From the NCBI GenBank assembly GCA_044359535.1, contig JBIKLZ010000001.1, positions 9,163 through 73,162 on the forward strand: 64,000 nt of DNA, given 5' to 3'. Origin of the DNA: Chlamydiia bacterium (lineage in GTDB: Bacteria > Chlamydiota > Chlamydiia > Chlamydiales > 2-12-FULL-49-11). The position numbers were made by a program. Positions 27,001 to 33,000 of this stretch are shown one piece after another (the first letter of the stretch is position 1; each line of letters opens with the position of its first letter).

Positions 27001-30000
27001 TTTGTAAATCAATAAGAGCCACCTCTCCAGAAGAAGATAGGGTAATTCTTGCATGGGCTTTTGAGACACTTAAATCATGAAGTAGAATATCGGAGTGCTC
27101 ACTATCTGAACCTATGACGTAGCTTTCTCCCTCAACTAAGGGGAATGTTGCCCCGGTTGCCGATCCATTCATCACTTTAAGGACCCATTTTGAGGGGGTG
27201 TGGCTTTTTGTGAAGTGGCCTAATGTTAAAGGGGCTGAAGGCTCTTGTTTAGAAAAGGCAAGCTCTTCTTGCTGTTGCTTTTCTGGAAGAGAAAGGGAAA
27301 ATCTAAAAGTGTTGTTCCCTATTTGAATTAAGTCATCCTCAGTAAGGGGGGTTTTTTCCTCTATTGGGGACTCATTTAAAAGAGCTGGGTTTGTAGAGCT
27401 TTCATTTTGTATAAAATAGGTGTCGTTTTCAAAAAATATCGAAAGGTGCTTTCGAGAGACCATAGGGTCTTGTAAAACAAAGGTACAGACATCTTTATCT
27501 CGACCAATTGTCCAATGGTTTCCTTCATCAAATGTAAACACCCACTCACCAAGTGGACCATCTTCACATATTAGAAAGCCTTTCATGTTCCCCCATAGAC
27601 ATTTGATCTTTATGTCTTTTTATTTAATCCTTTATAAAACGATTTCCTATCTGCTTTTATAATAACAAGAATGATACGGTCAACAATTTTAAAACTTTAC
27701 GCTTTATTTGTCTAGCCGAATTTTATTGTTAACTTCCTTTTTCCAATAGGAAAGATAATTAACAAATTCTTCTACCCAATCGAAAAACATTTTATAATTT
27801 ACTTCATAAGCGATGAGGGTAGACAGTGTCAAGAACTTCTCATCAGGATCGATACTTATTACAGAATTACCTGTTCCTTGACCCAAATAGTTAGCCTGTG
27901 AAAGATAGATGTAGAAATCCTCGACATTTTTTATCTCCTTTTCATTAAAAGGAGAGATGTTTGAAGAGATAAAAATAAAAGAGTGTTCCTCCTCAAAAGA
28001 CAGTTCGCTCCCATCATTTATTGTGAGGAAATATTTTTTTTTAGTTCCATGTTCTTCTGTAACTAAAGGGATGTTGAGTTGCTTTTCTAACTGTTTAATA
28101 AAGGATTCAAGCATAAAACTATTTTATAAGGGGGTTATGATTTTAGCCAAGGAGATTGTCCCCTTTTAGAACGTTTTCTTTTTATCCGCCCTTTTGTTGT
28201 CTTAAGGGGATCTTCAGTTTTTTTAGAAGAAAGCTTTTCTTTATCCCTTTTAGCCGAAGATTTAGCAGTTTGGAGCATCTCCCATTGCTCCTTTGTGAAG
28301 TTGCTTTCATCTAAGGATAAAGCATTGATCTCTTCAGGGGTTAACGAAAGTTGTTCTTGAGAAAGTTTTTTTTCGTAGGAAATTTTTTCTTTTAAAAGGG
28401 CCATTTTTTCATTAATAGACTTTTTTTCTGTCTCATCGCCTTTATTTTGGATGTACTTGTATTTTTCTATAAACGACATGGTTAAGTGAAAAATTTCATC
28501 AATGCGCTGTTCTTTGTCCTCTGACTCTAAAGAAAATAGATCAATGAGTGTACTAAAATCATCCTTCATGACTTTGAATATAGTTATTTATTTTTAGAAG
28601 GGAAGTTTTTTTATTGAATCTTAAGATAAGAATTGTTCAATTACAAGAAAAGAGAGGAAGAGGGTATGAATCAACTTGAAGAAATAGAGGATGAAATCTT
28701 TGAGACAATGGATCTTATGATACAAGCTTACAAAATGTTTAATGAGGTTTTAAAGCAGGATCATTTTGCTCATAAGGCTATAGCTGCCTCATTAATGGAT
28801 CAAATAAGTAGACAATTTAAAATAGATGTTAGGGAAAAAGAGGAAAAGATTGCCTCTATTAGAGATCACTTTGGAAGCGATGCTTTGATAAGTGACGAAG
28901 AAGCAAAACTAAAAGAAGAAAAATTTAAATCTTTTACCTTTAAAGTTGAAGAGTATGAAAAGATGATGGAAATGACTGCAAAAAACCTAAAAAAGCACTT
29001 TCCATTAAATAATAGAGCTCAAGAATTTAAAAAGAAAAGAAATAGACTAAGAAAAATGAGATCTAAAGGGAGAAAATAAGTGTTAGACGAATTAAAAAGA
29101 ACCATAGAGGCCTTTAAAGAGATCCTTAAAATGAACCTTCAGGCAAAAGAGCCTTCACATTCAGCGATCATGTTGTGGCTAATTAGGGTGTTTTCGGTGG
29201 CCAATGGCTTATTGCAACACGCAGCCACATTAGAGGATAAAGGGAAAATTTTTGACCTTATGAAGGGGATGCACCCTTTTTTAGAATCCAATAGAGAGGT
29301 CATTAAAAGGAAATTAAAAAATGAAGATATCAAAAATCCTCAGGAAATTGTGGTTACAATGATCAGTTTTGAAAAACAGACAAGATTGTACTCAAAATTT
29401 TTACGGGCAGCAAATAGAGAAAAAGAACGAAAAGTAGTAAATCAGTAAAAGTAAAAGGGTTATTTTAAGGTAAATAAAAGGAGTAAAGCAATGTCAGATC
29501 CAGTAACAGGAAACCAAGGGCAAGATCCAACAGATCCAACAGATCCTTACTCAACAGCGGGGATGGCTCAGCAAATAATGCAACAAATTGATCAAATTAT
29601 TGACGATTTAAAAAAGCACCCTGCCGATATGACCCAAGCAATCAATGAAGTATTTAATAAAATGCAACAGCTTCAGGGGAACCTTGTGGGGCAATCTTCT
29701 GAAACGCAATCAGCAATGACAGTAGCTACAAACGGTATTGCAAACTTACAAGCCTATGGAGCTGATAAGGATGGGACCCCTGTCCAAGATATTAATGTCT
29801 ATACAGGTTTACCGGAAGTAAATGCAGATGGATCAAAAAAGATGGTCTCTCCAGAAAAAGCCTTTCAAGATGAGTCTACTTTTTTACTGAATAATCCAAA
29901 TACTCAATATCAATTAGATTCAAGTGGAAAAGCCATTCAAGCTGTTGGAGCTGATGGAAAACCGATGTTTGATAAAGATGGCAATCCTGTCTTTGAAAAA

Positions 30001-33000
30001 AATAAGCTCTATACATTTATGCATACAAAAGGAAATGAGGCAGTTGCAGAACAACTTAAATCTGCTGTGGAAGGATCGATCACCTCACTTTCAGATAAAA
30101 ATTGCCCTGCAACGTTTTCTGGGGACTCTGGATATACAATAGACCCAAAAACAGGGCAGGTAGAGCTTGATGATAAAGGAAACCCTAAAGGAGAGCAAGT
30201 CTCTATTACTCAACCGGGTACAGATAGTAAAGGGAATCCAACTTTAGGGTCTATCGGGAACATGTGGAATAAAGCTGAGCCGGGAACCGATACATCAGGG
30301 GGGTCAACAACCCCTAAAACTCCTGATTCTTCGATTTTAAATGCCTTTCAAAGTGCCATGGGGACCTTAGGGCAAGCTGGAACGGCCTCTTCATCGACCT
30401 TGCAAGCCTTTATAAAAGTCTTAACCGATAATTTTACCGGTTCCCAAGGAAACTTAAACAATGCCCTCAATAAATCGATCTCGTTACTGACAGCAATGGT
30501 GAATAATTCTCGACCTGGAGGAGGTTAAGTCTTTGCTTATCTCTTTGATAATAAATGCGATAGCAAAAAAAGTCTTAATAATATCTTGATTTTTTAAGGA
30601 AAAACAGGTAAAATAAAGGTAGGGAAAAAGAACTTTAATAAAATAAGGATAAAAAAATGGATTTAGAAGATATACCTAATAATGATCAAAATAGTGTTTC
30701 TAATGAGATTGAAAGACAAAAGATTGAGGCAGAACTTAACGCTATCAATCACGATAGTGGGGGAAAAACGGTAGATCCAAAAAAGGGATTAGCTGCCGTT
30801 ATGACAGGATTAGATGCTGTAACTAAAGAGGCTTCTTCTAAAGAATCAGCCGGGCAGGGTTCAGCAACTGAGGATACTTCGAGTAACCCTTATGCAAGCG
30901 ATTCTGATTCTGATTCTGGTTCTTACTATGTAACAGATCCTTTGGTAGCCTCAATTCTTGCGGGGGTAACAAACCTTACTTCTAAAACAGAACTGATGAA
31001 AGCCACCTCTGATATGCAAGAAAAGCTCTCTGATTTAACAACAAAGGTAGCACAATCAGGACGTGATTGGATGCAAAACTTTTATCAATATGGACTTGTA
31101 GCTTCTGATGGTTCTGCATCAATGGGCTCTTATGATGCGGGCACCGCCCATAAGCCTGGAGATGTGTCTGTAGTGGATTTTAAAATTGCGAATGGAAAAA
31201 TTTCCATGAGTATTAATGGAGGGGTGACTTGGGAAACCCTAGGTCCAGATAGTTTAATTGAGGGGACACCTTCGGATACTTTAATAGCTGCAGCATTTCC
31301 TAACTATACCACAAGTGGATTGAATTCTGGCGAGCTTGCGTACTTATCACAACAATTTTATGATGCAGGGTTTAAAACAGCACAAGGTCCGGTTCAATTT
31401 CAAGGGATTCTTATAAATAATGGAACAACCGAAGGGGGGGGGACAGGTCTTCAAGCAGCATCTAGTGGAGATATGCAAGCTTTAATGAGTCAGTGGTCAT
31501 ATGTTCAACAAACTGCAAACAGTAATAATCAAACCATTCAAACAACCTCTAATTTACCTACAGCGATGCAATCAAACACAAACTCAGATATTGGTAATAG
31601 TACTCAAAGTCGGCAAGGTGTTGAAGGATGTTTGGATAGTACAGCAAATTTAATTACAGGTTGGACAAGGTAGGGGGTCTTTATGAGTGATAATTTAGGT
31701 ATAAACTCCGATGGAGTGAATAATAGTGTTCCTTCTCAAGATGTCGATTCTACAAAAAAATCTTTAAAAGGGGTCGATCCGAAAGTAGCCCATGCAGCCG
31801 TTGTTTCAGGGTTAGAAAACGCAATTGATACAGCACAGTCAGAAAGCAAGACTTCCCATGCAATGCCTGCCCTTATGGCAGTGATTGAGGCATCGCAAAA
31901 ATCTCAAGATGCAGGGAATGAAATTATTACAAGTCTCTCATCCATGGCAAATCAGATCGTGGAAGTGACCACAAAAGCCACTACTGAAGGGGTGCAGTGG
32001 GCCAATAACTACTATAATTATGGACTTTCTACCGCCCAATCTGACCCTTCACAAGGGATTGGTCAATGGTCTAAAGGGACAGATCTTCCGGCAGGACCGA
32101 TCACAGTAAATATGAAAATTGAGGGGGGAAACTACTACATGAGTATTGATGGGGGAAAAACCTACAAAAATATTGGGGCTATTATGCGTGGAGATGATGG
32201 ATTTGTAGCTCCCCCTCCTCAATCTGAAATTGATGCTGCCTTCCCTGGGTATACATGGCCTACAGATCCAAAACTTGTGAATGAAAATAAGGCAAGCACA
32301 TACTGGCATTCTGGAACAGGATGTCAGGGGGATGATCAAGTTTTCACAATGACTATTGAGGCTCCCGATAGAACCACAGGGGGGACAGGGATTGCTGGTG
32401 GAGCTCCTGATGACATGAATGATAAGTTAAATCAGTACTCTTATATACAAAATGTTAATAGTGAAGTAAATACTGCAAATCAAACCCTTTCAGCCCTTCC
32501 AGGGGCTCTTGAAAATACCATTGTCACTTCAATCAATCAAGGGAACAGCAATGCAAAAGATATCCTTAACGCCCAAGATCAGCTTGGGAATATGATACAA
32601 AACGCAGGGTAATTAAACAAGGGAGGAGGGGCTATGGGTGATGATAAAATACAAAGAGCAGATAACGTAGGTGAAGACGCTTACGTATATAACGACCTTG
32701 TTCAAGATGGGGTGGAAAAGAATAAAAAAAAGACAAACGCCCTTCTTTCGGGGTTAGAGCAGGTTGTGATGGGATCAATGGAAGAAAGTGAAGGGAAAAC
32801 GCCATCAAAAGCTCTAAAGCTCCTTCAAAAGGACCCAGTACAATTTGCCGATCTTTTCAAAAGTTCAAATAAAACCGATCAAGATGAGGCTTTTAAAGCT
32901 ATTGGAGCCTATGTAGCTTCTACAAAAGGGAGCGACACAAAAAATTTAAGGGTTATGCTACAAGAGCTGATCAAGGGGACCCCTCAAGAAAAGAAGGGGG

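Follow-up and report, generated by a model that had tools for sequence, protein, structure and literature searches.

Which protein caps the needle of the chlamydial type III secretion system (T3SS) has long been a gap. CT584/Cpn0803 has been proposed for this role (PMC3260263), and CPn0810 and CPn1022 have been proposed as chlamydial tip proteins from operon position alone (PMC4760673). A stretch of 64,000 nucleotides from contig JBIKLZ010000001.1, hereafter the window, raises the same question in an uncultured chlamydia. Three consecutive plus-strand genes, encoding proteins that we call A, B and C, stand immediately upstream of translocator-like genes in a T3SS locus, and an initial annotation had proposed them as a novel tip or filament family in three copies. 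The question is whether these proteins cap the injectisome, and if so as what kind of protein. In our analysis A, B and C are probably T3SS-exported, translocon-associated proteins, when the tip or adaptor reading is taken together with the reading as secreted helpers; that they form the tip or adaptor itself we put at roughly an even chance.

Results

Proteins A, B and C belong to two orphan families

The three genes are the following, with lengths in amino acids (aa):

29491..30528, plus strand: protein A, 345 aa, the founding member of an orphan family, A (open reading frame and orthologs)
30657..31673, plus strand: protein B, 338 aa, orphan family B (open reading frame and orthologs)
31683..32612, plus strand: protein C, 309 aa, paralog of B (BLASTP)

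Each of these open reading frames (ORFs) is preceded by a Shine-Dalgarno (SD)-like sequence. None of the products has a signal peptide or a transmembrane segment, the highest 19-residue Kyte-Doolittle mean being 0.65-0.98 as compared with 2.07 in the 672-aa protein encoded downstream. Their N-termini are polar, with N/D/S/G making up 33-57% of the first 30 residues, and N/Q/S/T/L account for 50-60% of the C-terminal 70 residues. The three ORFs, the lack of signal peptides and transmembrane segments, and the composition of both termini had been described in the initial annotation and were borne out, as were the flanking genes, two for small K/E-rich proteins upstream and one for a protein with hydrophobic segments (the 672-aa protein) downstream.

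B and C are paralogs, as had been noted from their translations, and align at 26% identity over 326 columns (BLASTP, E 2e-21). The further claim that all three genes are copies of one family did not hold. No similarity between A and either B or C was found by BLASTP, and hhalign gave probabilities of 0.3-0.9% with small as well as extended alignments; the best local match between A and B aligned C-terminal helix with C-terminal helix at E 0.063. The locus therefore holds two families and not one triplicated family. The literature that we searched contains no description of either.

Relatives keep the gene order and diverge at translocator-like rates

An exhaustive HMMER search with the B/C profile against 1.84 billion representative proteins returned 38 matches, about 20 of them full-length family members of 240-371 aa and the rest covering the central domain only. 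Every full-length member that could be traced comes from a metagenome or from a metagenome-assembled genome (MAG) labelled 'Chlamydiia bacterium', and no named cultured Chlamydiaceae protein is among the full-length matches of this search. Word-indexed searches gave only three relatives per family, a scan of genomes added two MAG loci, and a scan of metagenomes added only the window's own lineage. All detected relatives of both families are from metagenomes or Chlamydiia MAGs.

Six related contigs (L001, L004, L005, L010, L011 and L012) cover enough of the operon for its order to be compared. One or two A-type genes are followed by one or two B-type genes in all six, and translocator-like genes come next in five; the L011 contig ends within its B-type genes. 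The short contig L013 keeps the A-then-B order, and wherever a related contig covers the position, it holds one or two family A genes. The wider layout is the same in every contig long enough to display it: CdsN through CdsD, a CesT-like protein and a small minus-strand protein, then, on the plus strand, one or more small proteins, the A-type and B-type proteins, a 580-695-aa protein with multiple predicted transmembrane segments, a protein of ~400-450 aa, sometimes an extra gene, and clpX. In L001 and L004 the orthologs of C (348 and 363 aa) are distinct from those of B, and the B/C duplication therefore predates the split of those lineages.

Several features of the related loci are recorded here in their own right. 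The extra gene, absent from the window, encodes 453-795 aa and lies between the ~400-aa protein and clpX at L001 15883-17244, L004 8613-10133, L010 11500-13731 and L012 14408-16795. In L010 the minor-translocator-like gene comes before the major one. L004 and L005 (CAMDFS010000027.1 and CAMBZN010000005.1) are freshwater MAGs labelled 'Chlamydia trachomatis', with a translocator-like protein 45-46% identical to that of the window, ~38% GC, and clpX adjoining the T3SS operon; this content points to environmental chlamydiae, and the label looks wrong.

A, B and C share 23-33% identity with their L012 counterparts, and the 672-aa and 402-aa translocator-like proteins downstream 28-30%, as compared with 56-88% for the core T3SS proteins and 89% for ClpX. 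We also computed the ratio of nonsynonymous to synonymous polymorphism (pN/pS) against L014, a strain 98-99% identical to the window. This ratio is 0.58 for A, 0.48 for B, 0.17 for C and 0.76 for the 402-aa protein; it is 0-0.08 for the Clp and Tig genes and 0.03-0.28 for the core T3SS genes with enough synonymous changes. The plus-strand operon evolves as a block at translocator-like rates. Given orthologs in conserved synteny and pN/pS values of 0.17-0.58, A, B and C are real genes, conserved and under purifying selection. That the ORFs are chance reading frames or pseudogenes is refuted by these conservation data, which include full-length orthologs in several lineages and pN/pS values below 1; the SD-like sequences and the confident AlphaFold2 (AF2) fold of the central domain of B, described below, argue in the same direction.

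Conserved terminal helices enclose a variable centre

In the B-family alignment (A4, 19 sequences) the N-terminus is polar and variable. A conserved helix with the motif KKxxAAhhxxL comes next and is joined through an acidic disordered linker to a conserved long helix that ends in W..NFY.YG. The central insert that follows is highly variable, and the alignment closes with a conserved C-terminal helix, which often ends in GW(A/S)G. The insert is missing altogether in two family members, P0017 (240 aa) and P0019 (261 aa). Column identity is 0.35 and 0.27 in the two long helices and 0.21 in the centre, and the helices are amphipathic, with a period of 100-102.5 degrees kept up over 51 and 68 residues. 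An AF2 model of B built from the 19-sequence alignment has a predicted local distance difference test (pLDDT) score of 63 overall, reaching 72-94 over residues 130-290 and low at the termini; it places helices at residues 11-31, 41-66 and 95-145, then an alpha/beta domain, then helices at 270-313 and 318-337. Family A likewise has a conserved N-terminal helical region and conserved C-terminal helices around a loop-rich centre. In protein A itself these are a helical region at residues ~22-91, a centre with DGKP/DxxGNP loops, and helices at ~280-339, and the AF2 model is poor (pLDDT 54). For the B family, alignment and model together predict a helical part at the N-terminus, then one long helix, a mixed domain that varies, and another long helix at the C-terminus, which is the arrangement expected of a tip or filament subunit.

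Two long A-family paralogs, at L011 4680-5870 and L012 8653-9837, carry an N-terminal extension of ~100-130 aa made up of a motif helix and an acidic disordered linker. The resemblance of this extension to the B-family N-terminus suggests a transferable module that may serve in export or chaperone binding.

The central inserts of B and C are located as follows:

31095..31463, plus strand: central variable domain of B, residues ~147-269 (AF2 pLDDT 80-94; hairpin SINGGVTW)
32094..32369, plus strand: central ~95-aa domain of C, residues 138-229, NYYMSIDGGKTYKNIG...PP..EID.AFPGY...HSG..GDD.F (E 8e-31 with a hidden Markov model, HMM, of the domain)

The ~95-aa unit shared by B and C is a discrete domain without a Pfam family. 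It starts with a BNR/Asp-box-like hairpin, which in C reads SIDGGKTY, and has the consensus NYYMS.DG..F..lG...PP...IQ..FP.Y...HSG..GDG..F; the domain HMM matches B at E 7e-10. The B-type proteins of L010 and L011 have no match to this HMM and that of L012 matches over the hairpin only (E 5e-4), and therefore the insert has been exchanged during evolution. Outside the family the domain occurs as tandem repeats in other metagenomic proteins, with ten copies in P0012 and two each in P0022, P0023, P0031, P0032, P0036 and P0041; P0022 has an N-terminal anchor and P0031 a lipoprotein-like signal. The domain is also found at L015 5201-5860, in a contig from the same metagenome as the window's lineage. 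The weaker matches of the B/C profile are ordinary BNR proteins aligned over the hairpin only, and the profile draws Pfam-verified BNR proteins over its positions ~165-205; the Pfam BNR model, PF02012, does not score on B or C. We also considered B and C as fragments of adhesins, in view of the many large multi-repeat matches, and rejected this, as the matches cover only the central domain or the BNR hairpin.

Fast evolution, variable central domains and variable copy number, together with a modular repeat domain common to unrelated surface proteins and the lack of any match to a tip family, are also what would be seen if A, B and C were translocated effectors, late substrates encoded with the translocators and acting inside the host cell. 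The sipA and ipaA effectors are encoded in the sip and ipa operons in this way. We regard this as unlikely, since the position upstream of the pore-former is strictly kept across lineages in which the proteins retain no more than 23-33% identity, the terminal amphipathic helices are conserved and not the centre, which is deletable, and a motif near the N-terminus is shared with the translocator-like proteins.

Composition bears on another alternative. N/Q/S/T/G make up ~45% of A, B and C, with G at ~10%, R at 0-1% and a single Cys in each (0.3%). This resembles the needle protein, a 213-aa protein of the T3SS locus and the translocator-like proteins, and is unlike the K/E-rich small proteins upstream. 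High Gly and N/Q/S/T contents, one Cys each, several hydrophilic paralogs per locus and a BNR/Asp-box hairpin domain of a kind typical of carbohydrate-facing extracellular proteins would all suit secreted harpins or hydrophilic-translocator helpers, which would aid pore formation or passage through the host surface and form no defined needle cap. However, terminal helices that are long, conserved and heptad-like in their periodicity are seen more typically in axial or tip subunits, and there is no sequence link to harpins, the sole hint being a sub-threshold match to HrpE_Xanth (E 0.012). On balance the helper reading seems to us quite improbable.

An N-proximal motif is shared with the translocator-like proteins

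Two translocator-like genes follow C, and a motif first seen in the B-family helix recurs near the N-termini of their products, each instance below being located by the B-family motif HMM:

32634..34652, plus strand: 672-aa protein with multiple hydrophobic segments, translocator-like by architecture (Kyte-Doolittle)
34741..35949, plus strand: hydrophilic protein of 402 aa, rich in N/Q/S/T, at the 'minor translocator' position
30768..30833, plus strand: motif in B, residues 38-59, DPKKGLAAVMTGLDAVTKEA
31773..31835, plus strand: motif in C, residues 31-51, DPKVAHAAVVSGLENAIDTA
32718-32768, plus strand: motif in the 672-aa protein, residues 29-45, KKKTNALLSGLEQVV
34819-34875, plus strand: motif in the 402-aa protein, residues ~27-45, NKKIAAKLQGISAAM

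The hydrophobic segments of the 672-aa protein span residues 251-274, 319-364, 382-403 and 526-547, and the protein has no Pfam or PDB match. The 402-aa protein had been called a minor translocator; it has no segment at the transmembrane threshold (maximum 1.09).

The motif HMM was built from the motif region of the B family alone and searched against 266 ORFs of the window and related loci. Its top 11 matches outside the family are two long A variants, one standard A member, and four major and four minor translocator-like proteins, all of them at residues 29-69; the instance in the long A variant of L012 reads KKHGKAALFSELSDYAAAV. Such a coincidence of rank and position over at least three independent families is hard to put down to chance. 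In class I and class II clients the chaperone-binding domain directly follows the N-terminal signal, and the tip-protein chaperones CesA, LcrG, SseA and PcrG are small all-helical proteins (2026 review, PMC13466201). Following this client and chaperone pattern, we infer that the basic-then-amphipathic motif at residues ~30-55 may be a common chaperone-binding or sorting signal, with two small proteins of 137 and 122 aa, encoded at the head of the operon, as candidate chaperones.

The genes are best read as one operon within the T3SS locus

The small proteins and the other candidates near A, B and C are encoded as follows:

24205..24846, minus strand: 213-aa N/Q/S/T-rich protein at the CT668 position, flanked by CdsN and CdsG
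25323..25568, minus strand: protein of 81 aa at the position of the needle subunit (CdsF), with CdsE and CdsG on either side; no Pfam match of its own
27704..28114, minus strand: CesT-family class I chaperone-like protein, 136 aa (PF05932, E 4.5e-9)
28135..28569, minus strand: divergent small protein of 144 aa whose C-terminal tail is basic, kept in all related loci that cover the position
28666..29079, plus strand: 137 aa, small and K/E-rich, its C-terminal tail basic; candidate chaperone encoded by the gene that opens the operon
29080..29448, plus strand: small helical protein, 122 aa; second candidate chaperone

The plus-strand genes between 28666 and 35949 are separated by spacers of 0-128 bp, none of which holds a terminator-like site; the sole plus-strand candidates, at 33622-33671, are inside the 672-aa gene. 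From the short spacers and the lack of a terminator-like site in them, the segment is best read as one seven-gene operon encoding the 137-aa and 122-aa proteins, A, B, C, and the 672-aa and 402-aa proteins. Every gene in it is preceded by an SD-like sequence. The operon is divergent from the minus-strand array cdsD-cdsE-cdsF-cdsG-(213 aa)-cdsN-cdsO-cdsP-cdsQ-pkn5-cdsC. Along the window this array encodes the CdsC secretin, a Pkn5-like kinase, CdsQ, a protein in the CdsP position, CdsO (YscO-like) and the CdsN ATPase, and then, after CdsN, the 213-aa protein, CdsG (NF052304), the 81-aa protein, CdsE (DUF5398), CdsD (with FHA and CdsD domains) and the CesT-like chaperone. Downstream of the operon lie clpX, clpP, tig and a gene for an SNF2 helicase.

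This setting also bears on whether A, B and C leave the cell by the T3SS. Their secretion is an inference and they have no family assignment, which would suit regulators that act in the cytoplasm, or surface proteins with a different export route, as mere neighbours of the T3SS genes. Against this stand the lack of a signal peptide or transmembrane segment, the co-orientation with translocator-like genes across spacers of 9-128 bp, and the synteny, composition and N-terminal motif held in common with other products of the operon; we consider it very unlikely that they are not T3SS substrates.

For the first small protein, a start at the ATG at 28666 (137 aa) is more likely than one at the TTG at 28633 (148 aa). 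Its orthologs occupy the same position in L001, L004, L005, L011 and L012; orthologs of the 122-aa protein were detected in L001, L004, L005 and L011, and none in L010 or L012. Neither small protein has a Pfam or NCBIfam match. An all-against-all hhalign comparison of 12 locus families gave nothing above 11% probability, which is the value of a weak similarity between the divergent 144-aa protein and the 148-aa form (28633 start) of the first small protein; these two may be old paralogs. The products of 28135-28569 (minus strand) and 28666-29079 (plus strand) both have strongly basic C-terminal tails, KGRIKRKRSKRG... and KKKRNRLRKMRSKGRK, respectively. No TPR class II chaperone was found in the operon or in the other ORFs of the window that were scanned, which is unusual for a translocator operon.

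Elsewhere in the window, a bacterial class A RNase P RNA (80-451, minus strand) adjoins the gene for CdsZ, a zinc-ribbon regulator (456-1226, minus strand), at the window start. The gene at 45802-46830 on the plus strand encodes a 342-aa protein that is hydrophobic in a stretch at its N-terminus, then carries a long repeat tract, (TP)n / APAPTLDS, and has a coiled-coil-like C-terminal region; it may be an inclusion-membrane-type or surface protein. Rfam and tRNA scans gave no rRNA.

Discussion

Taken together, position, composition and architecture suggest that A, B and C are hydrophilic middle-substrate (translocator-class) components of the T3SS; such substrates leave through the injectisome ahead of the effectors and have an N-terminal signal with a chaperone-binding region after it. 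Export, chaperoning, tip location and helix packing are all part of this proposal, to which we give about even odds. In such a scheme the disordered polar N-terminus of each protein would act as the secretion signal, and the two small helical proteins encoded at the head of the operon would be their cytoplasmic chaperones. The basic-then-amphipathic helix at residues ~30-55, shared with both translocator-like proteins, would serve in chaperone binding or sorting. Once exported, the proteins could form a helical stalk, packed from their conserved long amphipathic helices (N-proximal and C-terminal) and docked on the end of the needle, and the variable central domain, in B and C the ~95-aa module with its BNR-type hairpin, would be displayed distally for host contact and as a scaffold for the pore. 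The end of the operon would supply a pore-former-like protein with several transmembrane segments and its ~400-aa partner.

Several observations weigh against a role as tip or adaptor. Neither sequence nor profile comparison links A, B or C to any family of tip, filament, pilus or translocator proteins, and Foldseek searches with the models of A and B against PDB and BFVD found nothing at E<=0.001; the AF2 models of both proteins are mediocre (pLDDT 63 for B and 54 for A). Pfam and NCBIfam scans that covered the operon and further ORFs of the window found no LcrH/Scc2-type TPR class II chaperone. Single matches to the motif outside the B family are not significant (E 0.18-3.7) except for L012_8551 (E 1.3e-4), and shared composition could inflate them. 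The 213-aa protein could be an alternative needle-distal, adaptor or tip candidate because of a weak match (E 0.0088) between its C-terminal residues 150-197 and PF09392, the T3SS needle family, as also recorded for its L001 and L012 homologs. To our knowledge, known systems use one tip protein, whereas here there would be three proteins from two families.

The initial annotation had recognised no similarity to LcrV, IpaD, SipD or CT584; Pfam together with PDB sequence and profile searches agree, and found none to EspA either. It had also looked to structure prediction for a tip-protein fold; none appeared, the best PDB match of B being a flagellin (Vibrio FlaA) at E 0.57 with a TM score of 0.13. 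Its tip module made of T3SS substrates thus survives in part, in the translocator-operon position, the composition and the architecture of B, and loses the single triplicated family and a demonstrated tip fold. That the proteins work like a tip or adaptor protein is the best-supported functional reading; membership in a known tip family is not established, as there is no Pfam, PDB or significant Foldseek match and the pairing of the two long helices as an antiparallel coiled coil is hypothetical.

More tentatively, and with more doubt than belief, we suggest that in an uncultured Chlamydiota clade the injectisome is capped by a tip or adaptor that is heteromeric, built from families A and B/C, which would be a new SctA-type structural class with conserved terminal helices and swappable or deletable distal domains. 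A, B, C and both pore-formers would be sorted via an unrecognised N-proximal motif, [KR][KR]xxxAAhhxxLxxh, read by small non-TPR helical chaperones in place of the LcrH/Scc2 type.

What is new here is the combination of orphan families in the slot of the tip or hydrophilic translocator, a candidate sorting motif and a swappable distal domain. With its two orphan families, conserved position, tip-like architecture and a motif shared with the pore-formers, the locus offers a concrete alternative answer to the chlamydial tip question in environmental chlamydiae. If the proposal is true, tip or adaptor proteins would gain a new class, translocator-class substrates a candidate signal for sorting or chaperone binding, and injectisomes a case in which domains are swapped at the end that faces the host. 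A limit on this significance is that the families appear confined to uncultured lineages, with no homolog detected in cultured Chlamydiaceae.

Comparison with known systems

Database comparisons were made at Pfam cut-offs of E<=1 for A, B and C and E<=0.1 for 29 members of the A and B families, none of which fits a Pfam or NCBIfam family. Matches of A, B, C and their neighbours to ApoLp-III, WXG100 and HrpE_Xanth (E 0.012) were rejected as sub-threshold noise. PDB sequence searches with A, B and C as single sequences and as profiles found no tip or CT584/Cpn0803 chain at E<=10. Flagellins and hook-associated axial proteins are marked by conserved flagellin-type helices at both termini or by a D0/D1 fold; Pfam gave no such match to A, B or C, and the best Foldseek result was the non-significant flagellin match given above.

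Among secreted proteins outside the tip families, the extracellular BNR/Asp-box proteins (PF02012) have hairpins with the motif S-x-D-x-G-x-T-W. B and C carry the similar S-x-[DN]-G-G-x-T-[WY] in a beta hairpin, but have a single hairpin inside a distinct ~95-aa domain and no beta-propeller. Harpins are Gly-rich, Cys-free, heat-stable helper proteins secreted by the T3SS; A, B and C contain ~10% Gly and one Cys each.

CT584/Cpn0803 and CPn0810/CPn1022 belong to the same phylum and address the same question, and A, B and C do not match the PDB chains of CT584/Cpn0803. The structure of Cpn0803 itself lacks the conserved central coiled coil of the tip families (PMC3260263).

IpaD, SipD and BipD of the Inv-Mxi-Spa systems are like A, B and C (309-345 aa) in size and in being encoded with the translocators. 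IpaD runs from helices at the N-terminus through a long helix and a mixed alpha/beta domain to a long C-terminal helix, and the predicted elements of the B family follow the same order. In this group an internal helix pairs with the C-terminal one as a central antiparallel coiled coil, with an N-terminal helical domain and a distal mixed domain on its flanks; the two long helices of B would have to pair likewise. There is no sequence, profile or Foldseek similarity to this group, however, and ipaD and sipD follow the translocator genes, whereas here the hydrophilic genes precede them, fall into two families and three genes, and have dedicated small proteins upstream.

EspA and SseB, with CesA(B) and SseA, are likewise encoded directly upstream of translocators and accompanied by a small helical protein, here a candidate chaperone. 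By analogy, the conserved helical termini of the B family might suit polymerisation. EspA and SseB are ~190 aa, EspA being a helical hairpin, and have no central domain, whereas A, B and C are larger and do not match PF03433; the insert-free P0017 and P0019 (240-261 aa) come closest to them, in format only.

LcrV and PcrV of the Ysc systems, with LcrG and PcrG, differ from A, B and C in that no LcrV homology is found and no LcrH-type TPR chaperone is encoded between the hydrophilic proteins and the pore-formers. The gene order of lcrGVH-yopBD is otherwise that of the present operon: a small helical protein, then a hydrophilic protein of ~330 aa, then the pore-formers.

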